Shown here piece after piece: positions 4,227 through 56,413 of a stretch of 64,000 bases of DNA; positions within the stretch are counted from its first letter, which is position 1, and each line of letters opens with the position of its first letter. Source of the stretch: Candidatus Omnitrophota bacterium (GTDB lineage Bacteria; Omnitrophota; Gorgyraeia; VGKH01). The notes beneath the pieces were generated by a model that was given only the letters and a program-made list of their open reading frames with translations, was not told the DNA's origin and did no database searches. The DNA is taken from the NCBI GenBank assembly GCA_022703055.1, contig JAKLEP010000003.1, forward strand, positions 214,238 to 278,237. The letters are read 5' to 3'. The position numbers and the translations under genes are program-made.

Positions 4227-5123
4227 TTATGCCAATAAAAATAATAAAATTGCCTTTTGGACGTGTAATCTATTTTCTGCCTGGTCAAAAACTATGGAGT
4301 TTTTGCTATCCATGACGTCAGATGAGACCTCTTCTCCCCGATGTGCCGGCAGACAATGCATAAATAAATAATTCTTTCTTGCCTTTGAAACTAATTTTCC
4401 ATTTATCTGGAAATCCTTAAAAATCCTTCTTCTTTCCTCAGCCTCTGATTCCTCTCCCATGCTCGCCCAGACATCAGTATAGATAACATCCGCCGACTCA
4501 ACAGCTTCATTAGGATTGTTGGATATATTTTTTAATGAGAACCCTGATTCTCTAACCACCTTTTTGTTCGGCTCATAGTCTTTGGGCGTGGCGACTTTCA
4601 AATCCACACCTAATTTTGCGCAGCCATACATCAAAGAATGACAGACATTATTTCCATCGCCGATATAAGCAAGCTTTATACCTTTGAGCTTCCCTAGCTT
4701 TTCTTTGATGGTAAACAAATCCGCCAAACCTTGGCAAGGATGAGAAAGATCGCTTAAGCCGTTTATCACCGGAATTTTAGAATACTTTGCCAGATCCAAG
4801 ACATCGCTGTGTTTAAAGGTTCTAGCTACGATTGCATCCAGGTATCTTGATAATGTTTTGGCGACATCCTCAACCGTTTCTCTTACCCCTAGATTGATTT
4901 CGCCAGGACCAAGATAAATGCAGTTTCCACCTAGTTGCCAAACTCCCACCTCAAAGGAAACCCGGGTTCTATTCGATGGCTTCTGAAATATCAGGGCAAC
5001 AGATTTGCCTTTAAGTTTATTGGCGTAAGCTGACTTATTCTTTTTGATCTTGGATGCCAGATCAAAAATACCTTCGATCTCTTTTGCTGATAAATCATTA
5101 ATACTAATTAGGTCTTTTTTCAT
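4227..5123 (-). CDS. argF: ornithine carbamoyltransferase
   Basis: 298 aa; carbamoyl-phosphate motif SNRTR, HPCQ and HCLP motifs of OTCase. Confidence 0.9.
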   Translation of the reverse strand: MKKDLISINDLSAKEIEGIFDLASKIKKNKSAYANKLKGKSVALIFQKPSNRTRVSFEVGVWQLGGNCIYLGPGEINLGVRETVEDVAKTLSRYLDAIVARTFKHSDVLDLAKYSKIPVINGLSDLSHPCQGLADLFTIKEKLGKLKGIKLAYIGDGNNVCHSLMYGCAKLGVDLKVATPKDYEPNKKVVRESGFSLKNISNNPNEAVESADVIYTDVWASMGEESEAEERRRIFKDFQINGKLVSKARKNYLFMHCLPAHRGEEVSSDVMDSKNSIVFDQAENRLHVQKAILLFLLA

Positions 5124-5134
5124 ATTTTCCTTTG

Positions 5135-6307
5135 TTAACTTAAAACTTTATCCAGAATATACATCGCTTTATCGATCTGCTTTTTGGTCACATTTAACGC
5201 CGGCATAAGTCTTAAGACCTTTTCATGCGTGCAATTAATCAACATCCCTTGTTCGAGAGCCTTTTCTACAATCGATTTTCCTTCGATGTTCAATTCCACA
5301 CCAAACATAAATCCCATGCCTCGGATATCGACGATAGAATTATGCTTTTTCTTTAATTCTTGCAGTTTATCAAAAATATATCCGCTCATCTTATTGACAT
5401 TGGTAAGCATCTTTTCTTTTTGTATCGCCTTTAATACACCTAAAGCCGCTTTGCAGACTAAAGGACTTCCGCCGAAAGTTGAAGCGTGCGTTCCTGGGCC
5501 AAGCGTATCAGATATTTTTCTTTTTACTACCATTACTCCGATTGGTAGTCCGCCACCGAGAGCTTTAGCTAAAGTCATGATATCCGGCTCAATTCCGTAA
5601 TTCTGGAAAGCAAACATCTTGCCGGTTCTGCCCACGCCAGTCTGGACTTCATCCAAAATCAAAAGCAGGTCTTTTTCATCGCAAAGTTTTCTTAAAGCCA
5701 AAACAAAATTCTTATCGGCGATATTTATTCCGCCTTCGCCCTGAATCAACTCAAGCATAATAGCGATGGTCTTATCGCTAATGGCATTTTTGACTTCATT
5801 GAGATTATTGAATTCAACTATCTTAAAGCCCTCAGGTAAGGGCGCGAAACCTTTTTTGTATTTGTCCTGCCCAGTAGCCGTTAAAGCTGCCAGCGTTCTA
5901 CCATGAAAAGAATTCTTAAAAGTAATGATTTCATATCTTTTTTCTTTGCCATATGCCCGGGCTAATTTTATCGCGCCCTCGTTGGCTTCAGCCCCGGAAT
6001 TACAGAAAAATACTTTGCCGTCAAACGACCAATAAATAATCTCTTTTGCAAGCTTAGCCTGTTGCGGATTAAAAAAATTATTAGGAAAATGAATAAGCTT
6101 GCCCACCTGATCCCGGACTGCCGATAAAACGTCAGGATGGCAGTGGCCGACATTGCTTACGCCCCACCCTGGGAAAAAATCAAGATACTCTTTGCCGTCG
6201 ATATCCCAGATTCGCGAGCCCTTGCCTTTTACAAAGATGATATTAAACCGAGTATAAGTCGGTAGGATATAATCTCTATAAGCGTCAAAAATTTCCTGTT
6301 TTTTCAT
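5135..6307 (-). CDS. argD: acetylornithine aminotransferase
   Basis: 390 aa; class-III aminotransferase blocks (NSGAEANE, DEVQTG.GRTG, TFGG.P), located between argB and argF. Confidence 0.85.
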   Translation of the reverse strand: MKKQEIFDAYRDYILPTYTRFNIIFVKGKGSRIWDIDGKEYLDFFPGWGVSNVGHCHPDVLSAVRDQVGKLIHFPNNFFNPQQAKLAKEIIYWSFDGKVFFCNSGAEANEGAIKLARAYGKEKRYEIITFKNSFHGRTLAALTATGQDKYKKGFAPLPEGFKIVEFNNLNEVKNAISDKTIAIMLELIQGEGGINIADKNFVLALRKLCDEKDLLLILDEVQTGVGRTGKMFAFQNYGIEPDIMTLAKALGGGLPIGVMVVKRKISDTLGPGTHASTFGGSPLVCKAALGVLKAIQKEKMLTNVNKMSGYIFDKLQELKKKHNSIVDIRGMGFMFGVELNIEGKSIVEKALEQGMLINCTHEKVLRLMPALNVTKKQIDKAMYILDKVLS

Positions 6308-7161
6308 GGCGTGATTTCCGTTCCAATACCTTCGTTAGTAAAGATTTCAAGAAGCAAAGCATGCGGAACCTTGGCATCAATAATATGGGTCTTTTTAACC
6401 CCGCCTTCTACAGTATGCAGGCATGCCTTAAGCTTGGGAATCATCCCCTCCTGGATTACCTGTTCTTTAATTAATGACTTTGCTTCCTTGATATTTAAAG
6501 ACGAAATAAATGATTCATGATCTTCGATATTTCTCATGACCCCTTTAACATTGGTCAATAATACGAATTTTTCAGCTCCCAATGCGACTGCGATAGCCGA
6601 AGCTGCTTCGTCGGCATTTACATTATAAAGCTGTCTTTTGGCATCCTTAGCCATTGGGCAAACCACAGGAATATGCACTCCTTTTAATCTTTCCATAATT
6701 TTTGGTTTGTTAATCGCGGATATTTCTCCTACAAAACCTAAATCAACCTTGCCTTTTAGCTCTTTCTTTTTGGCTCTAATTACTTCTCCCGACGCATTGA
6801 GGCTGCCTGCGTCGCCTTTTAAAGCTTTTATTTCCTTGACGATCAAATGATTTAATTTGACCAGCTCCTCTGCCACGACTTTTAGCGTCTCGGCGTCAGT
6901 AACTCTTATGCCGTCGTGAAATTGAGCCGGTTTTCCTATTTGTTTCATGGCCTCGGTTATGCTCGGGCCGCCGCCGTGGACCAATACCGGTTTTATCCCC
7001 ACAAAACTCAAGAAAACTATATCTTCTAAAACGCTTTTGCGGATTTTCTCATCGCCCAAAATGCTTCCGCCGTATTTGATGACAAAAATCTTCTTGCGGA
7101 ATTCATGGATGTACGGAAGCGCCTCAATCAAAACATCGGCTTTTTTAATTATATCTTGCAT
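6304..7161 (-). CDS. argB: acetylglutamate kinase
   Basis: 285 aa; amino-acid-kinase family, VIKYGG and VHGGGP motifs; overlaps argD by 4 nt. Confidence 0.9.
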   Translation of the reverse strand: MQDIIKKADVLIEALPYIHEFRKKIFVIKYGGSILGDEKIRKSVLEDIVFLSFVGIKPVLVHGGGPSITEAMKQIGKPAQFHDGIRVTDAETLKVVAEELVKLNHLIVKEIKALKGDAGSLNASGEVIRAKKKELKGKVDLGFVGEISAINKPKIMERLKGVHIPVVCPMAKDAKRQLYNVNADEAASAIAVALGAEKFVLLTNVKGVMRNIEDHESFISSLNIKEAKSLIKEQVIQEGMIPKLKACLHTVEGGVKKTHIIDAKVPHALLLEIFTNEGIGTEITP

Positions 7162-8275
7162 TAATCCTCACATATTCTTCGGATAAATCTGAAGTATAAA
7201 CCGTGGCTTCAGATTTACCCATTCCTAAATTTATATCAATTTTAATATTTTTCTTCTTCAATGAGCTGCAATTGACTTTAATTTTATCTTCAATAATATT
7301 TATTCCGGTTTGACCCAAGGCTGCAAAAATTCTGCCTAAGTTTCTATTCTCGCCATAAATCGCGGTCTTTAGAAGATTGGAATTGGCAACAGCAAAAGCC
7401 AAAGTTTTAGCGATTTTATCATTTTTTGCGCCGCTGACATTAATCTGAACAAATTTTGTCGCGCCTTCGGCGTCCTTAACAATCTTTTTGGCTAATTCTA
7501 AAAAAACATAGCTCAATGCCTGGGAAAATTCTTTTAAATCGGCACCATCGAGCTTCATATTTCTGGCTTTTCCGTTAGCAAGAACCAAAACCATGTCATT
7601 GGTGCTCATGCAGGCATCAATCGTAATAGAATTAAAGGAGTTATCTACAGATTCCTTGAGAAGCTTTTTTAATGCTTGCGATGGTATAGCCGCATCCGTC
7701 ACAATAAATGAAAGCATAGTTGCCATATTCGGAGCGATCATTCCAGCGCCTTTGGCGATACCGGTTATAGTCAACGATTTTCCGCCTACAGCGACCTTCA
7801 CAGAAACTTTTTTCGGCGCGGTATCAGTAGTCATAATCGCCGCTGCTACGTTATTAAGGCCGTTTTTATTTATTTTTTTAGTCAAATAGCTTATTCCGGT
7901 TTTAATTTTATCAATTGGCATGGGCTTACCGATAATTCCGGTGGAAGCAACTAAAACATCGCTGGTTTTTATATTTAACACCTTGGCAACGCTTGAAGCC
8001 ATGGCTTTAGCATCGTTCAATCCTTTGGCCTTGGTCATGCAATTAGCATTACCGCTATTAGCGATAATCGCCTGAGCCCGTCCATTTTTAATGTGTTGGG
8101 CTGTGATAATTACCGGCGCTGCTTTGATTTTATTAGTTGTAAACACTCCTACTGCCGTAGCCACGGAATCAGAATAAATCAAAGCCAAATCCTTTTTACC
8201 CGATCTTTTTATGCCGCAACTAATTCCTTCTGCTTTAAAACCAATAGGCAGGACTGCCTTACTCAAAATTTTCAT
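7145..8275 (-). CDS. argJ: bifunctional ornithine acetyltransferase / N-acetylglutamate synthase
   Basis: ArgJ blocks incl. autoprocessing site region ATMLSF(IVTDA). Start moved to ATG 8275 (MKILSKAVLPIGF...), which overlaps the argC stop as ATGA. Confidence 0.85.
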   Translation of the reverse strand: MKILSKAVLPIGFKAEGISCGIKRSGKKDLALIYSDSVATAVGVFTTNKIKAAPVIITAQHIKNGRAQAIIANSGNANCMTKAKGLNDAKAMASSVAKVLNIKTSDVLVASTGIIGKPMPIDKIKTGISYLTKKINKNGLNNVAAAIMTTDTAPKKVSVKVAVGGKSLTITGIAKGAGMIAPNMATMLSFIVTDAAIPSQALKKLLKESVDNSFNSITIDACMSTNDMVLVLANGKARNMKLDGADLKEFSQALSYVFLELAKKIVKDAEGATKFVQINVSGAKNDKIAKTLAFAVANSNLLKTAIYGENRNLGRIFAALGQTGINIIEDKIKVNCSSLKKKNIKIDINLGMGKSEATVYTSDLSEEYVRINARYN

Positions 8276-44106: not shown

Positions 44107-44367
44107 TTAATCCTCCAAATTAACAATGGGGCTAATAATCTTACACAATTTTCTGCGCCCCGTTGTAGATTTGTAAAACTTTTCCTTCTGTCGGGCCTCG
44201 CTTAATGTTTCAAATGACTCGGTATAAATTAATTTGTAAGGACGATACGGACGCGACGATTTAACCTTACCAGCATTGTGCTCAGTTAAGCGTTTACCAA
44301 CATCTTCAGCCACGCCAGTATAAGTCTTTGTTTTTGCTTTGCTTAAAAGAACATAAACATGATGCAT
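44107..44367 (-). CDS. GIY-YIG nuclease-family protein (UPF0213-type, 86 aa)
   Basis: HHVYVLLS...KTYTGVA.D...RL.EHN.GK......YRPYKLIY.E.F....EA...E...K: full-length small GIY-YIG domain. Confidence 0.8.
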   Translation of the reverse strand: MHHVYVLLSKAKTKTYTGVAEDVGKRLTEHNAGKVKSSRPYRPYKLIYTESFETLSEARQKEKFYKSTTGRRKLCKIISPIVNLED

Positions 44368-44428
44368 AACTTCCTAACTTGTTGTTGGCGGACCCGCCTC
44401 GCCAGATTCTCTGGCGGGCGAGGTCTCG

Positions 44429-44464
44429 CCATTTTTGCCTGAGTTTAACTTGAGGCAAAAATGG
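44429..44464 (-). terminator. hairpin that base-pairs the 3' CCA of tRNA-Ser(GCT) with downstream sequence
   Basis: Plus-strand ccatttttgcct (44429-44440) / aggcaaaaatgg (44453-44464), 12-bp stem. On the minus strand it starts with the tRNA CCA. Confidence 0.4.
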
Positions 44465-44554
44465 CGGAGAGGCTGGGATTTGAACCCAGGGGCCCACTTT
44501 TGGCAGGCCAATCGCTTAGCAGGCGACTCCGTTCGGCCGCTCCGGCACCTCTCC
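44462..44554 (-). tRNA. tRNA-Ser(GCT), CCA encoded
   Basis: Hand fold: acceptor GGAGAGG/CCTCTCC, anticodon arm GTCGC-CTGCTAA-GCGAT, long variable arm, T arm CTGGG-TTCAAAT-CCCAG. Confidence 0.9.
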
Positions 44555-44585
44555 AAATTTCCCTTGCTTACTTGTATGAAATTTC

Positions 44586-44629
44586 GGATCCCGAGCCCGC
44601 CTTGAATTTTAATTCAGCGGCGAGGGATC
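44586..44629. repeat. structured repeat, copy A (GGATCCCGAG...CGAGGGATC)
   Basis: ggatcccgag-cccgccttgaattttaattcagcgg-cgagggatc; preceded by gaaatttc as in copy B; lies between the tadA stop and tRNA-Ser(GCT). Confidence 0.6.
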
Positions 44630-44638
44630 TCTATTTTG

Positions 44639-45115
44639 TCAATTGTTCTTGGCTGCTTCTATTTTCCGTTTCCTTTTAAAGAACTCGGTCAAGAGCTTGC
44701 CGCATTCTTCTTCTTGGATCCCTTTTTTAACGGCTATGCGATGATTAAGTTTTTTGTTGTTGGCGATTTCGATTACCGAACCGCAGGCTCCTGTCTTGGG
44801 ATCTTTGGCGCCAAAATAAATTTTCTTTACCCTGGATAAAACAAGCGCCCCCGCGCACATGCTGCAGGGCTCAATTGTCACATATAAAGAACAGTCGCTA
44901 AGCCACTTGGACCCGAGATAGTTTGTCGCTTCAGTGATGGCAATCATCTCTGCATGGGCAGTGGGATCTTTCAGTAGCTCGACTTGATTATGCGCCCTGG
45001 CAATGATCTTACCATTATAAACTACAACTGCTCCGACGGGAACTTCGTCATTCTTAAAAGCCTCTTTTGCTTCCTTTAAGGCTTCATTCATAAACAAAAT
45101 ATCAGTCTTAGACAT
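44639..45115 (-). CDS. tadA: tRNA-specific adenosine deaminase
   Basis: 158 aa; CDA zinc motifs HAEM and PCSMCAGAL; length and N-terminus typical of TadA. Confidence 0.9.
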   Translation of the reverse strand: MSKTDILFMNEALKEAKEAFKNDEVPVGAVVVYNGKIIARAHNQVELLKDPTAHAEMIAITEATNYLGSKWLSDCSLYVTIEPCSMCAGALVLSRVKKIYFGAKDPKTGACGSVIEIANNKKLNHRIAVKKGIQEEECGKLLTEFFKRKRKIEAAKNN

Positions 45116-45128
45116 AGATATTAAACAA

Positions 45129-45202
45129 TGCGCCTGACTGGATTTGAACCAGTAACGCCCAGCTCCGTAGGCTGGTGCTCTATCCAGTTGAGCTACAGGC
45201 GC
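45129..45202 (-). tRNA. tRNA-Arg(ACG), CCA not encoded
   Basis: Hand fold: acceptor GCGCCTG/CAGGCGC, D arm GCTC/GAGC, anticodon arm CCAGC-CTACGGA-GCTGG, T arm ACTGG-TTCAAAT-CCAGT. Confidence 0.9.
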
Positions 45203-45242
45203 AATATATTTTAAGAGACCTAAACTTCTGTTTTGTTAGAAC

Positions 45243-45364
45243 AACACCCAGCTCCGTCCCTCGCTCTTGCTCTTGACGGAATCCCGAGTTTCGCTCGGGA
45301 CGAAGTCCAACATGAAACGAGGGACTCCGTAGGCTGATGCTCTATCCAATTGAGCTATGGGCGC
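45243..45364 (-). pseudogene. decayed tRNA-Arg(ACG) copy (positions ~1-48 only) interrupted in the anticodon loop/stem by a 73-nt insert
   Basis: Minus strand GCGCCCATAGCTCAATTGGATAGAGCATCAGCCTACGGAG[insert]CTGGGTGTT matches the intact tRNA-Arg with ~6 substitutions. No T arm or 3' acceptor strand follows. Insert is flanked by direct repeat ACGGAG (plus-strand ctccgt at 45252-45257 and 45325-45330). Confidence 0.6.
45278..45326. repeat. structured repeat, copy C (diverged; inside the pseudo-tRNA insert)
   Basis: ggaatcccgag-tttcgctcgggacgaagtccaacatgaaa-cgagggactc; same end motifs as copies A and B with one inserted/changed base each. Confidence 0.4.
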
Positions 45365-45379
45365 AAAAAGAATTGATTT

Positions 45380-46806: not shown

Positions 46807-46896
46807 TGGCGGAGAGGGAGAGATTCGAACTCTCGAGCCCCTTGCGAAGCCACATGTTCTCCAGACATGCCGATTCAGCCGCTCTCGCACCTCTCC
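46807..46896 (-). tRNA. tRNA-Ser(GGA), CCA encoded
   Basis: Hand fold: acceptor GGAGAGG/CCTCTCC, anticodon arm CATGT-CTGGAGA-ACATG, long variable arm, T arm GAGAG-TTCGAAT-CTCTC. Confidence 0.9.
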
Positions 46897-47280: not shown

Positions 47281-47371
47281 TGGCGGAGAGGCTGGGATTC
47301 GAACCCAGGAGGCCAAAAATGACCTACCGATTTTCGAGACCGGCCGATTCAACCAGCTCTCGCACCTCTCC
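47281..47371 (-). tRNA. tRNA-Ser(CGA), CCA encoded
   Basis: Hand fold: acceptor GGAGAGG/CCTCTCC, anticodon arm CCGGT-CTCGAAA-ATCGG, long variable arm, T arm CTGGG-TTCGAAT-CCCAG. Confidence 0.9.
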
Positions 47372-47404
47372 GAAATTTCAATTTATCTTATTCTAGGAAA
47401 TTTC

Positions 47405-47445
47405 GGATCCCGAGTCCATCGAATTTCTATAATGGACGAGGGATC
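47405..47445. repeat. structured repeat, copy B (GGATCCCGAG...CGAGGGATC)
   Basis: ggatcccgag-tccatcgaatttctataatgga-cgagggatc; inner stem GTCCAT/ATGGAC differs from copy A but stays complementary. Confidence 0.6.
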
Positions 47446-47479
47446 TTTATTACGGCGCCGAAACACATTGTTTCGGCAT

Positions 47480-47513
47480 CCGCCACGTTTTTCAATAATT
47501 AAAAACGTGGCGG
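47480..47513 (-). terminator. hairpin that base-pairs the 3' end (CCGCCA) of tRNA-Ser(TGA) with downstream sequence
   Basis: ccgccacgttttt (47480-47492) / aaaaacgtggcgg (47501-47513), 13-bp perfect stem. A second hairpin gccgaaaca/tgtttcggc lies at 47457-47477. Confidence 0.4.
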
Positions 47514-47599
47514 AGGCGGAAGGATTCGAACCCTCGAGCAGCCTTACGGCCGCTAACGGTTTTCAAGACCGCCGCTTTCAACCACTCAGCCACGCCTCC
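47508..47599 (-). tRNA. tRNA-Ser(TGA), CCA encoded
   Basis: Hand fold: acceptor GGAGGCG/CGCCTCC, anticodon arm GCGGT-CTTGAAA-ACCGT, long variable arm, T arm GAGGG-TTCGAAT-CCTTC. Confidence 0.9.
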
Positions 47600-47603
47600 G
47601 AAT

Positions 47604-48212
47604 TTAAGTCTTATTTATAAATAATTGAGAAAAAACAATATTGTAAATATTTACCGCTTCGCTAAAAGTATTATTATAAAAATCGATAAATGAGAACCCG
47701 TTTAAAAAATAACTCAAGCTAAATGCTACAATGAATAAATTAACGATATAAATCAACTGCATAGAGAAAAAGTAGTTGGCTTTGAGTACATCATCAGTTT
47801 TAGACTTCAAGGCCTTTGCACAAAAAACCATATGCAAAGTTAAAGTGAAACTAACGAGAAAAATAAATTGCTTAGCGATATTTAAATCCTTAAAAAACAA
47901 TTTGATTATGGAAAATGCAATTAATAGAAATATCGTATAAATAGGCAGCACAAACGATGCGACATTGACTAAAGGCGCGAAGAAACGGAATACCACAGAA
48001 ACCATATCCTGGCCCTTCTTAAACATTATATCAGGCTCATATATAAATAAATGCAAAATTAGATAGGAGAATATTCCCCAGACAAAAAGCTCGTAAATTT
48101 CTCGATCGACTGAATGTATCTGCTTGAAGAAACTGATTGAACAAAATACGACAATGGGGACAAAAATGATCGCAAAAATTAACTTAATAATGCCTATTAT
48201 ATTCTTACTCAA
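47604..48212 (-). CDS. hypothetical polytopic membrane protein (~6 TM)
   Basis: 202 aa, almost entirely hydrophobic helices. Overlaps the serS stop by 8 nt, and its own stop is 4 nt from the tRNA-Ser(TGA) 5' end. Confidence 0.5.
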
Positions 48213-49473
48213 TTCTCTGCCTCCCGTCCATATAGGGCCTTAAAGCTTGCGGGATCATAATCGTGCCATCTTTTTGTTGGCATGTTTCAAGCAGCGCGAT
48301 TACAGTTCTGGCTAGAGCCACGCCCGAGCCATTTAAGGTGTGGACAAAATTAGTTTTCTTGGTTTTATTGTCTCGATAGCGGATATTTGCCCGGCGAGCC
48401 TGAAAATCCTCGAAATTACTGCAGCTTGAACATTCAAGCCAGGTATTTATGCCCGGAGCGTAAACTTCGATATCGTAGCATTTGCTAGCGGAAAAACTTA
48501 AGTCTTCCGTGGGGAGCATGACAATACGATATTGCAGTCCCAATAATTGAAAAACTTCCTCGGCATTAGAAACTAGTTTCTCCAATTCGTCATAGGAAGT
48601 TTCTGGCTTTACGAATTTAACCAATTCAACTTTGTCAAATTGGTGCACGCGCATAAGTCCCTTAGTATCTTTTCCGTAGGAACCGGCCTCGCGCCTAAAA
48701 CAGGCGGTATAAGCAGTATAATAAATCGGCAAATCTCCATCATCTAAGACCTCATCACGAAAAATATTTGTTACGGGGACTTCCGCGGTAGGGATTAAAA
48801 ATAAATCATCATCTTTTAGACGATACATATCTTCTTCCATCTTTGGTAGTTGCCCCGTTCCGGTCATCGAGGCGCGATTGACCAAAAACGGAGGAAAAAT
48901 TTCTTTGTATCCGTGTTTCTGTGTATGCAAATCAAGCATGAAATTAAATAATGCTCTTTCCAACCTTGCTCCGAGGCCTTTGTAGAGGATAAAATTTGAG
49001 CCGGTGATTTTGGTCGCGCGCTTAAAATCGATGATATCTAAATTTTCAGCCAATTCGATATGGGTCTGGGGCGTAAAATCGAATTTTGGTTTATTTCCTC
49101 CTTCGCGCACAGTTTTCTTTTTATCAGCCGGCCCTAAAGGAAGCGAAGAATGGCAGATATTCGGTAAGGATATCAATAATTCCTTCAATTCCGCTTCTAA
49201 TTTCTTAGCTTCGGCTTCGTTTTGGTCAATTCTATCCGAGATCTCTTTCATGGATTTAATCTTGGGTTGGGCATCTTTCTTTTCCTTAAGGAGCTTGCTA
49301 ATCTCGTCATTGGCCAAATTTTTCTGGCGATTCAAATCCTCCAATTCAGCCGTAACTTTCCGAAGGGCTTCATCGATTTTAACAAACTTATCAATATCCC
49401 ATTTTACGTTACGATTTTTGTTTGAATTCTTAACTAGTTCTAAATTCTCTCTGATAAATTTTCTGTCTAACAT
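48205..49473 (-). CDS. serS: seryl-tRNA synthetase
   Basis: 422 aa; N-terminal coiled-coil arm, class II motifs (FRRE.GS.GKDT.G..R.HQF.KVE, GSG.A..R). Confidence 0.9.
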
Positions 49474-49488: not shown

Positions 49489-50118
49489 TTAATTCTTCCT
49501 CCAAGGCCTTCTTGCTTTTTGCGGTTTCCACAGGCCTCTTTCATTTTCCTTGGCTTCCTGATATAACTTCAAGAATAAAGCATCATATTTGGTGTTAGGA
49601 GGCACGCTCTCCGGCAACGCATATCCCCATTGAACTACAAATGCATTTATAAATAAATACACCTTATCGCCTTCTATCTTATAGATATCCATTGCCTCCG
49701 GCTCAAGATTAACTTTACATTTAGAGCAGTACAGTTTATAGGCATAGGCTAAAAGTGTTTTGCCATCTTTATCTTTTGCCTGCGTATCAAATTGAAGTTT
49801 TACTTTTTGTTTATTTATAAGCCCCTTAAGAAAATTCCTTGCCACTCTCCCCTGCCTTCTAACTTCCATAAGATTCTTGCCCTGCTTCACTAATTCTCTT
49901 TGTGTCTTTTCATCGGGCATAACTGGAGCATCAATACCGATGAGATGGACTTTTTGCCTTCCATCCAGAAAGAAGGTATCGCCGTCAAGTACCGAGACTA
50001 CTTTAACCTCATCATATTTACCCGACTTATTCTTGGAAGCAACATTTTTACATGCGCCAAGAAAGAAAATAGTCAGAAATGATAATAATAAAATTGAAAT
50101 TATTGTTATCTTCTTCAT
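49489..50118 (-). CDS. thermonuclease (SNase)-like lipoprotein, diverged
   Basis: 209 aa; lipobox FLGAC; V.DGDTF......KVHLIGIDAP and DKDGKTLLAYAY blocks align with SNase. The canonical Glu after IDAP and the Arg of DKYGR are substituted (V, K). Confidence 0.6.
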   Translation of the reverse strand: MKKITIISILLLSFLTIFFLGACKNVASKNKSGKYDEVKVVSVLDGDTFFLDGRQKVHLIGIDAPVMPDEKTQRELVKQGKNLMEVRRQGRVARNFLKGLINKQKVKLQFDTQAKDKDGKTLLAYAYKLYCSKCKVNLEPEAMDIYKIEGDKVYLFINAFVVQWGYALPESVPPNTKYDALFLKLYQEAKENERGLWKPQKARRPWRKN

Positions 50119-50125
50119 ATAAATC

Positions 50126-51586
50126 CTATCCCTTTATGACACCAAGCGGCCGCATCCGACAGACGCGTTTGGAAATGCCGGCATTATGCACTACATCAAC
50201 AACATCATTTACATCTTTGTATGCCTGAGGAGCCTCTTCAGCTATTGTACCATGACCTGAGGCTTTGACAAAAATTCCTTTTGATTCTAAATCTTTTAAA
50301 AGCGCTCCTACATTGATGGTCTTGGTTGCTTCTGTACGGGATTTTAGCCTTCCTGCGCCATGGCAGGTGGAATAAAATGTCTCAGATGCTTTCTCGGTCC
50401 CAACGAGAAGATAAGAATTTCTCCCCATATCCCCGGGAATAATCACAGGCTGGCCGGTTTTCTGGAATCTTACCGGTAAATCCGGATGTCCCGGCGGAAA
50501 GGCGCGGGTTGCGCCTTTTCTGTGGACACAAAGAGTTTTCTCTTTGCCTTCGACTTTATGTTTTTCAAGTTTAGCGATATTATGAGCGACATCATAAATC
50601 AAATCCATGCCCATATCCTGCCAGCTTCTTTTAAATACCTTCTCGAAAGCCTTACGCGTAAGATACATCAGGCACTGACGATTTGCCCAGGCATAATTTG
50701 CCGCGCATCTCATGGCTGCAATATAACTCTGAGCTTCCGGAGAATTCACCGGCGCGCAGCCAAGCTGCCTATCAGGCACATTGATATTATATTTGGCCAA
50801 ACAATGAATCATGCTTTTTACATATTCATCGCAGACTTGATAACCCAGTCCACGAGAACCAGAGTGAATCATCACTGTGACCTGACCAAGAGTTAATCCG
50901 AAATAATCGCAGAGCTCAGCATCGTAGAGCTGGTCGATTACTTGAATCTCTAAAAAATGATTCCCTGAACCCAGTGTACCTGATTGCGCCTTGCCGCGTT
51001 CGTAGGCCCGCGGTGATACTGCCGAGGGATCAGCACCTGCAATTACCCCGTAATCTTCAGTAGCGTCCAGGTCATCTTTTACGCCGTAGCCTTTTTCCAC
51101 CGCCCACTTGGCACCTTTCGCCAGAATTTCTCTTTCTTCTCTTTCGCTTACGCGGATATCGCCTTTTGAACCGACTCCAGAAGGAACATCATTAAATAAA
51201 ACATAAACCAAATCCTTTATTTTATCTTTAATTTCATCAAGCTGAAAATTAGTTTTTAAGAGTCTGACTCCGCAATTGATATCGTATCCGACACCCGCTG
51301 GAGAAATCACTCCGTTATTTTCCGGATCGGTAGCCGCGACTCCTCCAATACAAAATCCGTAGCCCCAGTGAATATCCGGCATAGCCAAAGAATATCCAAC
51401 TATCCCGGGCAGGAATGCAACATTGGCAACTTGCTCAGCTGCTTTATCTTCACGGATATCTTTAAGCAGTTTCTCGTCGGCGTAAATAAGCCCAGGAACC
51501 CTCATACCTGCTTTGTAGGCTTTAGGAATACGAAAGCGGAACTCATCAACTTTTTCTAAAGGCCCCTGCCATGTATCAGACATCAA
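50126..51586 (-). CDS. rtcB: RNA 3'-phosphate ligase RtcB
   Basis: 486 aa; PD.H.GYG, GYDINCG, GSGNH, HSGSRG.G, and the catalytic His block in CHGAGR. Confidence 0.9.
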   Translation of the reverse strand: MMSDTWQGPLEKVDEFRFRIPKAYKAGMRVPGLIYADEKLLKDIREDKAAEQVANVAFLPGIVGYSLAMPDIHWGYGFCIGGVAATDPENNGVISPAGVGYDINCGVRLLKTNFQLDEIKDKIKDLVYVLFNDVPSGVGSKGDIRVSEREEREILAKGAKWAVEKGYGVKDDLDATEDYGVIAGADPSAVSPRAYERGKAQSGTLGSGNHFLEIQVIDQLYDAELCDYFGLTLGQVTVMIHSGSRGLGYQVCDEYVKSMIHCLAKYNINVPDRQLGCAPVNSPEAQSYIAAMRCAANYAWANRQCLMYLTRKAFEKVFKRSWQDMGMDLIYDVAHNIAKLEKHKVEGKEKTLCVHRKGATRAFPPGHPDLPVRFQKTGQPVIIPGDMGRNSYLLVGTEKASETFYSTCHGAGRLKSRTEATKTINVGALLKDLESKGIFVKASGHGTIAEEAPQAYKDVNDVVDVVHNAGISKRVCRMRPLGVIKG

Positions 51587-51995
51587 AAATCACCTGCGCC
51601 ACAAAACCATTATCTATTTTCTCTATCTTTAATTCGTGGTAGGTTGCGGCTTTTATCTCTGCTTTAATCTTGCAATTTTCTCGCGGACAACCAAAAATAA
51701 TAGCAACCAATCCAGTCTCGCTTAAAGTATCTATCTTAAATTCTTTAAAAAGCACCTCTTTGGCATCAAATAAAGAAAGCAGCTCATTCAGCCAATTAAC
51801 TAGAAGTTCTTCGCGATCTTGACCTTCTATTTTTATATCGAATTTATTTAATTTTATTGAATCGCAAGACTTGCATGGTTCGGCGATAATATCAAACATG
51901 GCTAAGGCAGCTTTGACAAAAATCTGCTTTAAATCGCTGCCAGAAACCCTTACGCCGATATCAGCGGTGTGCTCAATTAACTCGTAGTCTTTCAT
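51576..51995 (-). CDS. archease (RtcB activator)
   Basis: Start moved to ATG 51995 (MKDYELIEHTADIGVRV, the archease N-terminal signature). The track N-terminal extension is read through tRNA-Lys. Overlaps the rtcB start. Confidence 0.85.
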   Translation of the reverse strand: MKDYELIEHTADIGVRVSGSDLKQIFVKAALAMFDIIAEPCKSCDSIKLNKFDIKIEGQDREELLVNWLNELLSLFDAKEVLFKEFKIDTLSETGLVAIIFGCPRENCKIKAEIKAATYHELKIEKIDNGFVAQVIFDV

Positions 51996-52000
51996 AAAAA

Positions 52001-52076
52001 TGGTGAGCCGCGAAGGAATCGAACCTTCAACCCCCAGATTAAGAGTCTGATGCTCTACCAATTGAGCTAGCGGCCC
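52001..52076 (-). tRNA. tRNA-Lys(CTT), CCA encoded
   Basis: Hand fold: acceptor GGGCCGC/GCGGCTC, D arm GCTC/GAGC, anticodon arm TCAGA-CTCTTAA-TCTGG, T arm GAAGG-TTCGATT-CCTTC. Confidence 0.9.
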
Positions 52077-52103
52077 GTTATTTTTTTGATATTATCGGAA
52101 AAT

Positions 52104-52131
52104 ATTATACCATTAAAAAACAATAAGACAA
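52104..52131 (-). promoter_or_regulatory. candidate extended -10 promoter driving tRNA-Lys and downstream genes
   Basis: Minus strand TTGTCT (52131-52126), 16-nt spacer ending TGg, TATAAT (52109-52104); 27 nt before the tRNA 5' end. Confidence 0.5.
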
Positions 52132-55543: not shown

Positions 55544-56413
55544 TTACGGAACCGGATCCATTTCATATGGTGTCACTGGATACGGTATAGTCTTATTATG
55601 AACCAAAAATCCGCCTGCAACATAAGTATGGTAAGGATTAACCTCTAAATTGTATACTGTGACTTTTTGCGCGATTTCTTTAATATCATTAATCGTTTCT
55701 TCCTTGCCGTTGGAATCAAAAAGCTTATCGCCAACCTTCAAGCTACCTATCTTTTCCCAGCGGCCATTAGAATAAACAAGGTGATTCGAGGTGACTTTTA
55801 GATTTCCGTTGACAATAAGGTATCTATCAGCGGCGTGCTGAGAAACTTCCTTGACTTTATCATTCTTAAAAACAGCTGTTTTCTCATCGAAGGCAACAAG
55901 CTGGTCTCCTACCTTTACCTGTTCTATAGGTTTGAGGCTGCCGTCGGCCATAAGTATGGGTGTGCCGGCAAGAAAACAAGAATGCACGATATCCACTAAT
56001 TCTCCTCCGCTTCCTGCTCCAAAAGTGGCGTTAACTATGAAAGTAGTAACACTGACTAATTGCCTACTTAAATCTCCCGCAGGATAAACTCTTACCTGCA
56101 CCTGTTTTAAGGCATTATTATTGTTAACAATATTAACAGTCCGACGCAGGTCAAACGGATAGCCTTCGTAATTACTGGCTGTATTATCGTAGCCGTCAGC
56201 CAGTGTCGGATCGTTAAAATCGAGGCTGTTGACTTTGGCTAATTCAGATTTTGCCAGCCCTTCCGCAATCCCTAAATCCCGGGAATAAAACGTACCGCGT
56301 ACATACTCAATGGACATAATCCCTAAAGGCACTAATACCAAACCAACCAGTACTATCGTAATAATTATTTCTACAAGCGTAAATCCATATTGAAATTTTC
56401 CCATCTTAATCAC
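55544..56413 (-). CDS. minor pilin fused to a C-terminal Hint (intein-like/BIL) autoprocessing domain
   Basis: 289 aa; prepilin signal FQYG|FTLVEIIITIVLVGL. aa 146-273 hold the Hint blocks CFLAGTPILMADG (A), VTSNH (B, TxxH) and VYNLEVNPYHTYVAGGFLVHN (F/G). Followed by Lys and a 16-aa tail. Confidence 0.8.
   Translation of the reverse strand: MIKMGKFQYGFTLVEIIITIVLVGLVLVPLGIMSIEYVRGTFYSRDLGIAEGLAKSELAKVNSLDFNDPTLADGYDNTASNYEGYPFDLRRTVNIVNNNNALKQVQVRVYPAGDLSRQLVSVTTFIVNATFGAGSGGELVDIVHSCFLAGTPILMADGSLKPIEQVKVGDQLVAFDEKTAVFKNDKVKEVSQHAADRYLIVNGNLKVTSNHLVYSNGRWEKIGSLKVGDKLFDSNGKEETINDIKEIAQKVTVYNLEVNPYHTYVAGGFLVHNKTIPYPVTPYEMDPVP

Follow-up and report, generated by a model that had tools for sequence, protein, structure and literature searches.

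A tRNA-Lys gene adjoining archease-rtcB in Omnitrophota: a probable mixed tRNA-mRNA operon with a Shine-Dalgarno-less first cistron

The subject of this work is a tRNA and RNA ligase locus on a 64,000-nt stretch of the genome of a Candidatus Omnitrophota bacterium (assembly GCA_022703055.1, contig JAKLEP010000003.1, positions 214,238 to 278,237 of the forward strand). The whole stretch is called the window, and coordinates are counted from its first letter. On the minus strand of the window a tRNA-Lys(CTT) gene ends 5 nt before the start codon of archease, the gene for the activator of the RNA ligase RtcB, which is encoded next. The adjacency of tRNA-Lys and archease recurs throughout the phylum. 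Archease systematically lacks a Shine-Dalgarno (SD) sequence, and the 5-nt spacer has no room for separate expression signals. The locus is probably a mixed tRNA-mRNA operon, in which the mRNA ends would be set by tRNA processing and the archease message would be near-leaderless and without an SD.

The tRNA-Lys-archease junction and its recurrence

The following features make up the 5' part of the locus.

52104..52131, minus: promoter-like sequence TTGTCT-16-TATAAT with a TG extension (promoter-pattern scan)
52001..52076, minus: tRNA-Lys(CTT), canonical cloverleaf with encoded CCA (ARAGORN; Rfam RF00005)
51996..52000, minus: TTTTT spacer of 5 nt from the CCA to the archease ATG (sequence reading)
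51576..51995, minus: archease, 139 amino acids (aa) (Pfam PF01951)
50126..51583, minus: rtcB, RNA ligase of the archaeal/eukaryal type, 485 aa (Pfam RtcB; protein comparisons)

The tRNA-Lys(CTT) gene scored 69.5 bits against the Rfam tRNA model, the top score among the window tRNAs. In an alignment of its orthologues, variable positions were found on both stem arms. An earlier description of the locus, here called the sequence-only reading, had placed the CCA, TTTTT and the archease ATG in direct succession with no room for an SD. The minus strand reads in this way, and ARAGORN, Rfam and the orthologue starts agree. No SD-like motif fits the 5-nt spacer or the tRNA-Lys 3' end at the window locus. 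Since the spacer also has no space for a promoter or a terminator, archease would by geometry be co-transcribed with tRNA-Lys. From 52076 to 47600 on the minus strand no terminator-like site was found, except for one weak match within a membrane-protein gene described below. A promoter internal to the tRNA was looked for by eye and rejected: positions -12 to -7 before the ATG read CTCACC and form no -10 box.

The archease start itself is well placed. The N-terminus, MKDYELIEHTAD, aligned with the first residues of 19 orthologues, which share an MK(D/N)YE...HTAD start. Because these orthologues begin at the same position, the ATG at 51995 is the true archease start. The only upstream in-frame start codon, a TTG at 52061 that would open a 161-aa open reading frame (ORF) through the tRNA, was rejected, as the orthologues all begin at MK(D/N)Y.

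Upstream of the tRNA, 27 nt separate the end of the -10 element (site 52131..52104) from the tRNA-Lys 5' end. The sequence-only reading had called this site a strong promoter candidate, a view that stood in part. The site is present, and 44 of 67 orthologous loci have a promoter-like site in the 90 nt before tRNA-Lys, but taken alone it is weak, with 39 promoter-like matches observed in the region versus 28.5 expected from shuffles. Because such matches are frequent in AT-rich DNA, the site is used here as supporting evidence only.

Recurrence was scanned with an archease alignment against one genome per GTDB species, which gave 80 loci (individual loci are cited by L numbers). A co-oriented tRNA-Lys was found directly upstream of archease in 70 of the 80 species loci, which are 70 of the 73 informative loci of the Omnitrophota type. 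Such a survey of archease-rtcB neighbourhoods had been named beforehand as a test that could refute the proposed link, and it found the adjacency phylum-wide. The anticodon of the upstream tRNA-Lys was CTT in 69 loci and TTT in L067. Left out of the 73 were three loci near a contig edge, of which L028 nevertheless has a tRNA 3' end, 9 nt away from the archease ATG, and four loci not of the Omnitrophota type. In these four, RtcB is 57-59% identical, no serS follows, and the genomes are labelled Actinomycetota or Dehalococcoidia. Three Omnitrophota-type loci are truly without an upstream tRNA-Lys.

The gap between tRNA-Lys and archease was measured in 70 cases, namely the window genome and 69 species loci. 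It was 0-10 nt in 8, 11-20 nt in 17 and 21-45 nt in a further 17; cumulatively, 25/70 gaps were 20 nt or shorter and 42/70 were 45 nt or shorter, and the others extended up to 3.2 kb. Both CCA-encoding and CCA-less tRNA-Lys genes occur among the short-gap loci. The long gaps of L009, L036, L068, L075 and L079 contain a strong terminator hairpin and then TATAAT 6-7 nt before the ATG; in L075 a -35-like TTGGTA was seen by eye 18 nt upstream of TATAAT. This position of TATAAT predicts a leaderless archease transcript in the long-gap lineages. A search of the long gaps of 15 loci at Rfam gathering thresholds returned only tRNAs and one unrelated cyclic di-GMP riboswitch. In the gaps of L017, L027 and L049 a partial second tRNA-Lys 3' half (T-arm and acceptor strand) was observed 100-250 nt past the complete tRNA; it resembles a scar left when an element integrated at the tRNA 3' end.

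SD-like motifs were present at 8 of 80 archease starts (10%), at 47 of 61 rtcB starts (77%) and at 40 of 65 serS starts, and in 14% of random 15-mers. In the window, orf89 has a textbook SD (AGGAGGTGA), and the organism therefore does use SD pairing. Judged from these sequences, archease appears to be translated without a leader phylum-wide, with its 5' end coming either from a promoter or, for most species and also for the window genome, from a cut in the tRNA 3' trailer. As a separate observation, a C-rich run resembling an anti-SD stands immediately 5' of the archease start in L011, L019, L033, L037, L068 and L075; its variants are CCCTCCC|ATG, GCCTCCC|ATG, CTCTCCC|TTG, CCGCCC|GTG and TATCCCT|ATG.

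The tRNA and the ORFs, on one strand and with a 5-nt spacer, have the geometry expected of a mixed tRNA-mRNA operon. The 5-nt gap at the 5' side, a 4-nt gap at the 3' side (see below) and the missing SD likewise correspond to a tRNA-punctuation layout. From the sequence we infer that the genes are co-transcribed, and also which enzymes process the RNA, where they cut and how translation begins, as follows. RNA polymerase would start about 20 nt upstream of tRNA-Lys and read through into the protein genes. Ribonuclease (RNase) P would cut the 5' end of each tRNA, and an endonuclease of the RNase Z or RNase E type would cut on the 3' side of tRNA-Lys within the U-rich spacer, so that the tRNAs are freed. 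In species with a CCA-less tRNA this would be RNase Z, acting after the discriminator; in the window genome the cut after the CCA would be made by a Thermotoga-like RNase Z or by an RNase E/G-type enzyme. The cuts that release the tRNAs would also define both ends of the polycistronic mRNA, its 3' end being set by RNase P at tRNA-Ser(TGA). The product would be an archease mRNA with a 5'-monophosphate, a leader of 0-5 nt and no SD. Its archease cistron would be translated in leaderless or short-leader mode, and rtcB and serS would initiate at ordinary internal SD sites. The sequence-only reading had offered a leaderless archease mRNA, made through tRNA 3' processing, as one of two options. In view of the 5-nt geometry, the recurrence and the scarcity of SD motifs, this option is now the best-supported one.

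Archease, RtcB and the SNase-like gene

The archease covered profile positions 1-136 of 136 in Pfam PF01951 (E 2.9e-37, 128.5 bits, cutoff 25) and matched PDB entry 4n2p (E 5e-19). An identical archease is annotated in metagenome-assembled genomes of Candidatus Omnitrophota. In a 20-sequence alignment that includes the window protein, H9, T10, A11, D12, K115-H120 and D138 are invariant; they belong to an HTAD motif near the N-terminus and to KAATYH...D near the C-terminus. The conserved acidic and His residues of archease form a metal-binding tip, and archease-rtcB operons have already been described in bacteria (Desai 2014, PMC3973293). The rtcB ATG at 51583 overlaps the archease stop by 8 nt (ATGTCTGA), and an SD-like AGGTGA for rtcB sits within the archease 3' end.

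RtcB matched the Pfam RtcB family with an E value of 6e-174. It scored 568 bits with Pyrococcus horikoshii RtcB, 538 with Thermus TTHA1785 and 470 with human RTCB. Against the E. coli-type equivalog PRK09588 it reached 173 bits, below the cutoff of 407, and it also stayed below the cutoff of the model for the PrfH-linked type. The best NCBIfam model was the extein part of the intein-containing archaeal-type family. Five motifs are carried by the translation, YDINCG, GSGNHFLE, IHSGSRGLG, VAHNIAK and STCHGAGR. We take their cores DINCG, GSGNHF, HSGSRG, AHN and CHGAGR to be the active site, with metal ligands and the guanylylated His. By scores and motifs, the window RtcB is of the archaeal/eukaryal type.

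Neither RtcA nor RtcR is encoded adjoining rtcB, the neighbours of which are archease, the SNase-like gene and serS. By its gene content the window locus is thus no rtcBA-rtcR repair operon of the E. coli type, and the distinction from that arrangement drawn in the sequence-only reading is borne out. We read RtcB and archease as a constitutive housekeeping RNA ligase set placed in a tRNA and translation block, not as a stress-induced set of the rtcBA type. In many Omnitrophota the main RtcB match begins at least 1.4-1.9 kb after archease (L006, L008, L014, L018, L022, L023, L028, L036, L049, L056, L068, L072, L074, L080 and L081). In L008 a 996-aa ORF (4481-7471) passes the NCBIfam model for intein-containing RtcB with 1226 bits (cutoff 1150); the window RtcB, unlike that of L008, has no intein.

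Behind rtcB comes the nuclease-like gene that the sequence-only reading had included in a possible tRNA-Lys damage/repair module.

49489..50118, minus: SNase-like lipoprotein gene, 209 aa (Pfam SNase; lipobox LGAC)

The gene starts 7 nt after the rtcB stop; this spacing and the archease/rtcB overlap were confirmed in the sequence. The protein scored 39.6 bits with Pfam SNase (PF00565, cutoff 21) and fell below the cutoffs of the NCBIfam NucI and EcnA models. A BLASTP comparison with an approximate S. aureus nuclease sequence was weak (E 0.011). In this weak alignment D21 and D40 tentatively correspond to Asp, R35 to His and R87 to Lys, and E43 falls at an insertion, IDAPVMPDE. In S. aureus numbering, we assume Arg35, Glu43 and Arg87 to be the catalytic residues and Asp21 and Asp40 the Ca ligands. 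A PDB sequence search returned just a spurious match to a repeat protein, and PADLOC gave only a weak SNc+LTD match.

By tblastn, the SNase-like gene matched only L001 and L003, which are loci of the same genome. It is absent from L005-L084, the 80 other species loci, and even from L005, where RtcB is 93% identical to that of the window. On this distribution the gene is a lineage-specific insertion between rtcB and serS, outside the conserved unit, and by its lipoprotein signal the product is exported. Because it is lineage-specific and carries this signal, it cannot belong to a cytoplasmic tRNA repair module. We therefore rejected it as a module member, and the proposed combination of tRNA-Lys, ligase and nuclease falls with it. 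Another promoter-like sequence, TTGTCA-16-TACAAT with TG (50244-50271, minus), was seen within the rtcB 3' end, some 126 nt ahead of the SNase-like gene; this gene may be driven by it, or the match may be due to chance.

The 3' tRNA-Ser boundary and the tRNA-Arg(ACG)-tadA block

Further downstream on the same strand the locus continues with a synthetase gene, a membrane-protein gene and three tRNA-Ser genes.

48205..49473, minus: serS, seryl-tRNA synthetase (Pfam scan), conserved downstream of rtcB in Omnitrophota
47604..48212, minus: membrane-protein gene, 202 aa, overlapping the serS stop and conserved after serS
47508..47599, minus: tRNA-Ser(TGA), 4 nt past the membrane-protein stop codon (ARAGORN)
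47281..47371, minus: tRNA-Ser(CGA), preceded by a promoter-like TGGACT-17-TAGAAT (ARAGORN)
46807..46896, minus: tRNA-Ser(GGA), between orf89 (stop 16 nt upstream) and a gene for a T2SSE-family ATPase (65 nt downstream) (ARAGORN)

Using the window proteins in tblastn, we found the order archease, rtcB, serS and 202-aa membrane protein in nearly all Omnitrophota loci. The membrane protein had no Pfam or NCBIfam match. In orthologous loci, tRNA-Ser(TGA), tRNA-Ser(CGA) and tRNA-Ser(GGA) come after the genes from archease to the membrane protein. Over 34 loci the median gap from the membrane-protein stop to tRNA-Ser(TGA) was 12 nt, and it was at most 20 nt in 19 of them. As judged from gene order, the conserved Omnitrophota unit is tRNA-Lys, archease-rtcB-serS-membrane protein and tRNA-Ser(TGA), and so extends further than the sequence-only reading had it. 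With tRNA-Lys close to the genes at the 5' side and tRNA-Ser(TGA) at the 3' side, a polycistronic mRNA bracketed by tRNAs is suggested.

From 52.1 kb to 42 kb the window is a one-strand mosaic of tRNA genes and genes related to translation and replication, which ends in dnaX-recR. The order of serS, tRNA-Ser, tadA, dnaX and recR resembles the origin-proximal order of Bacillus subtilis. This likeness points to tRNA-Lys-archease-rtcB having been added onto an old synteny. An RNase Z gene beside recR was considered because of an MBL-fold gene in L174 and was rejected, since recR is followed in the window by genes for a dehydrogenase and an aldolase-type enzyme. Among the window ORFs that were scanned, none was recognised as an RNase gene.

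About 7 kb downstream of the archease locus, on the same strand, a second tRNA gene stands close to a protein gene.

44462..45202, minus: tRNA-Arg(ACG)-tadA-tRNA-Ser(GCT) block (ARAGORN; NCBIfam)
45129..45202, minus: tRNA-Arg(ACG) (ARAGORN)
44639..45115, minus: tadA (NCBIfam TadA equivalog)
44462..44554, minus: tRNA-Ser(GCT), downstream of tadA (ARAGORN)

The spacer between tRNA-Arg(ACG) and tadA is 13 nt long and without an SD; it becomes 37 nt with a second ATG, the start used in one NCBI annotation. TadA scored 164 bits with the NCBIfam TadA equivalog (cutoff 150). In all five other Omnitrophota loci sampled (L173-L177), tRNA-Arg(ACG) is directly upstream of tadA and tRNA-Ser(GCT) downstream of it, with gaps between tRNA-Arg(ACG) and tadA of 8, 119, 52, 20 and 7 nt. 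We know of no bacterial substrate of TadA other than tRNA-Arg(ACG).

Several smaller elements were noted around these tRNA genes. At 45225-45372 (minus) the 40 nt from the 5' end of tRNA-Arg(ACG) recur, with 3 mismatches, in a truncated copy. As the copy has no T-arm, it is probably a decayed duplicate. Its anticodon-loop region is split by an insert of about 71 nt, which contains a hairpin and has CGGAG as a direct repeat on either side; the place of the insert would fit the canonical 37/38 intron site. A small GIY-YIG gene was found right behind tRNA-Ser(GCT) (44107-44367, minus; 86 aa; Pfam E 1.9e-15), and in L038 and L083 a GIY-YIG-like coding sequence was seen by eye between tRNA-Lys and archease. 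This suggests that mobile GIY-YIG genes land beside tRNA genes.

An exact 18-nt repeat, CTCGGGATCCGAAATTTC, occurs on the minus strand at 47397-47414 and 44578-44595 (2 copies versus 0.08 expected). In front of tRNA-Ser(CGA) and tRNA-Ser(GCT) it makes up the 3' arm of a hairpin, GATCCCTCG...CTCGGGATC, and it may be promoter-associated. Behind many tRNA genes stands an element of two hairpins, an AT-rich one starting from or within the CCA and then a GC-rich one, often with CCCGAGC...GCGAGGG arms. It was observed in the window at 47470-47510 and 44395-44465 and in the gaps of L014, L015, L017, L018, L020, L063 and L068, and no Rfam family matches it. Upstream of tRNA-Lys, at about 55544-56404 on the minus strand (L001 1592-2452), a type IV pilus-like cluster contains a 286-aa gene, the product of which has precomputed matches to the N-terminal methylation (pilin) motif and to HINT/intein-type domains.

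Alternative readings and known systems

Several points weigh against an operon whose mRNA ends are made by tRNA processing. A leader of five U is not strictly leaderless, and short 5' extensions lower leaderless initiation in E. coli. The 3' maturation of CCA-encoding tRNAs in model bacteria is mostly exonucleolytic after a downstream cut, and a downstream cut outside the 5 nt would destroy the archease 5' end. About one third of the species have long gaps, some with clear terminator-plus-promoter cassettes. Tight coupling of tRNA and archease is thus no requirement, and inherited synteny could account for part of the conserved order. The constant Lys identity of the upstream tRNA is also not accounted for by the model. 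In its full form the synteny argument starts from an ancestral order of tRNA, terminator hairpins, leaderless promoter and archease, which repeated spacer deletions would have turned into fusions, with read-through only and no selected mechanism. In several subclades the terminator-plus-promoter cassettes of long-gap loci are indeed much alike, the TTTTT that follows the CCA looks like the opening arm of the AT-rich hairpins behind other window tRNAs, and gap length differs widely even on neighbouring branches of the archease tree. However, short gaps are present in most subclades, and at short gaps the archease frame, the conserved N-terminus and the start codon are intact, so that the fused form is clearly functional and stable. 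The avoidance of SD motifs is systematic and not random, and equal tightness at the 3' boundary and at tadA favours a design that is tolerated and reused. We regard descent with mere read-through as unlikely. A further possibility is that the A-rich leader of the pre-tRNA pairs with the UUUUU-AUG trailer and masks the archease start until RNase P removes the leader, by which archease and RtcB synthesis would be linked to the tRNA maturation capacity. In the minimum free energy fold of 52100..51960, leader AAAAAU/UCA is indeed paired with trailer AUUUUU/UGA, so that the acceptor stem reaches across the start codon. Yet this helix is short and consists of A-U pairs throughout, the fold as a whole has a z-score of only -1.75 (8 of 200 shuffles fold as well), and the leader of the closest relative, L005, is without the same complementarity. 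A-runs and T-runs are, moreover, common in an AT-rich genome. Such gating is highly improbable.

The identity of the tRNA leads to another explanation, and a second scan bears on it. Metagenome contigs with non-Omnitrophota archeases yielded 80 loci, and most of these archease-rtcB loci had no tRNA upstream. A neighbouring tRNA-Lys was seen in three groups of the archease tree: the main Omnitrophota clade with co-oriented tRNA-Lys(CTT); a deep sister clade (L067, L132, L142) with co-oriented tRNA-Lys(TTT) at gaps of 22, 53 and 4 nt; and a clade nested among tRNA-less lineages (L090, L094, L109, L114, L123), where tRNA-Lys(CTT) lies 107-475 nt upstream and on the other strand. A search for homologues with RtcB of the last clade led to Dehalococcoidia/Chloroflexota. 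Four further RtcB proteins of this clade returned eight extra loci (L165-L172), all with divergent tRNA-Lys(CTT). Taken together, tRNA-Lys(CTT) in the Dehalococcoidia clade (L090, L094, L109, L114, L123, L165-L172) diverges from archease-rtcB-nitroreductase-thiolase at a distance of about 80-490 nt, and among four proteins looked up the gene on its far side varies (phosphorylase, esterases, YaaC-like). This pattern, which comprises no more than two or three independent events, suggests that the link of tRNA-Lys with archease-rtcB is not random. It could mean that tRNA-Lys is a client or sensor of archease-RtcB, for example if RtcB reseals tRNA-Lys cleaved by an anticodon nuclease, and that the linkage ties the ligase level to tRNA synthesis. 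The identity of the tRNA is kept while the arrangement changes (CTT co-oriented, TTT co-oriented, CTT divergent), other non-Omnitrophota loci are mostly without an upstream tRNA, and in the window block tRNA-Arg(ACG) is likewise placed beside the gene of TadA, the enzyme that modifies it, and serS beside genes for tRNA-Ser. tRNA-Lys is the classic target of anticodon nucleases, which also counts for this explanation. So does the response of Salmonella rtcB operons to broken tRNAs (PMC7790460). Against it stands that no anticodon nuclease or other toxin is found in the neighbourhood and that PADLOC has no match for archease or RtcB. The known tRNA-Lys nucleases act on the UUU isoacceptor and not on CUU. 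Two or three lineages are very few independent events, and, as tRNA 3' ends are hot spots of integration, the left flanks in Dehalococcoidia would be expected to vary in any case. The constitutive housekeeping placement beside serS speaks against a dedicated role in defence or repair. The PrrC-type module raised in the sequence-only reading fails in the same way: no tRNA-cleaving nuclease is encoded with the ligase, the only nuclease-like gene being that of the exported lipoprotein. Coupling of ligase level to a tRNA-Lys substrate is, in our judgement, quite unlikely. The same low probability is given to the specific claim that tRNA-Lys is a client that RtcB maintains or matures, that the genes are tied for this reason, and that this came about independently in the Dehalococcoidia clade.

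The mixed tRNA-mRNA operon, which we favour, combines known parts. Mixed tRNA-mRNA operons and archease-rtcB operons are each known, and for the phylum-wide arrangement bracketed by tRNAs, with a first cistron lacking an SD, we found no precedent in the literature. Likewise, searchable literature gave no prior description of the Omnitrophota RtcB arrangement or of bacterial tRNA punctuation giving a leaderless mRNA. If true, the model describes a natural mRNA that is made leaderless, or nearly so, by tRNA 3' processing, and it bears on the use of leaderless translation beyond the Actinobacteria and Deinococcus models. The locus also puts archaeal-type RtcB and archease into a constitutive translation-gene context in an uncultured phylum and sharpens the question of what RtcB does in bacteria where no protein-spliced tRNA introns exist. 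The recurring tie to tRNA-Lys, together with the parallel fusion of tRNA-Arg(ACG) and tadA, offers a concrete candidate substrate for RtcB. Were tRNA-Lys truly its client, bacterial RtcB of the archaeal type would have a defined housekeeping substrate, and the linkage would fit a wider rule, seen also in the tadA part of the block, by which the gene for an enzyme has the gene of the tRNA it acts on fused to its 5' side.

In the tufB operon about 100 nt of spacer and a normal ribosome-binding site precede the protein gene. As proposed for the window locus, 5' tRNAs and a translation-related protein gene are joined under one promoter and separated by processing in this operon (E. coli/Salmonella thrU-tyrU-glyT-thrT-tufB, PMC6134099). 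The window locus differs in its 5-nt spacer, in the missing SD and in a tRNA that also abuts the mRNA 3' end. The archease-rtcB tRNA splicing operon of archaea and diverse bacteria shares the gene order, the translational coupling and an archaeal-type, archease-dependent RtcB (PMC3973293). No tRNA gene is described for that operon, and the Omnitrophota unit adds tRNA-Lys, serS, the membrane protein and tRNA-Ser. In Salmonella rsr-yrlBA-rtcBA and E. coli rtcBA-rtcR, rtcB is likewise found with genes for tRNA-like RNAs (YrlA Y RNAs) and is linked to broken tRNAs (PMC7790460, PMC4201824). These operons have an E. coli-type RtcB, RtcA, Ro60 and the sigma-54 activator RtcR and are induced by stress. 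The Omnitrophota locus instead has a genuine tRNA, archease in place of RtcA, no regulator and, as far as its context indicates, apparently constitutive expression.

Phage T4 with PrrC and Pnkp-Rnl1 is a conceptual parallel only, in which tRNA-Lys is broken and religated. It differs in having an anticodon nuclease, in the ligase chemistry (RtcB seals 3'-P to 5'-OH) and in the isoacceptor, UUU versus CUU. The closest layout is that of mitochondria. In the punctuation model of Ojala, Montoya and Attardi, tRNAs flank the mRNAs with spacers of zero to a few nt, and cuts by RNase P and RNase Z release leaderless mRNAs without an SD. The Omnitrophota mRNA is similarly flanked by tRNAs on both sides, with few-nt spacers and an SD-less first cistron. 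Mitochondria have genome-length transcripts and specialised ribosomes, whereas the Omnitrophota have ordinary promoters and SDs at neighbouring genes, only some of their junctions are tight, and tRNA processing is proposed for them. Work on mitochondrial tRNA punctuation leading to leaderless mRNAs is among the references listed in PMC4633059. If transcript mapping confirms the proposed ends, the Omnitrophota unit would be a bacterial counterpart of mitochondrial tRNA punctuation.

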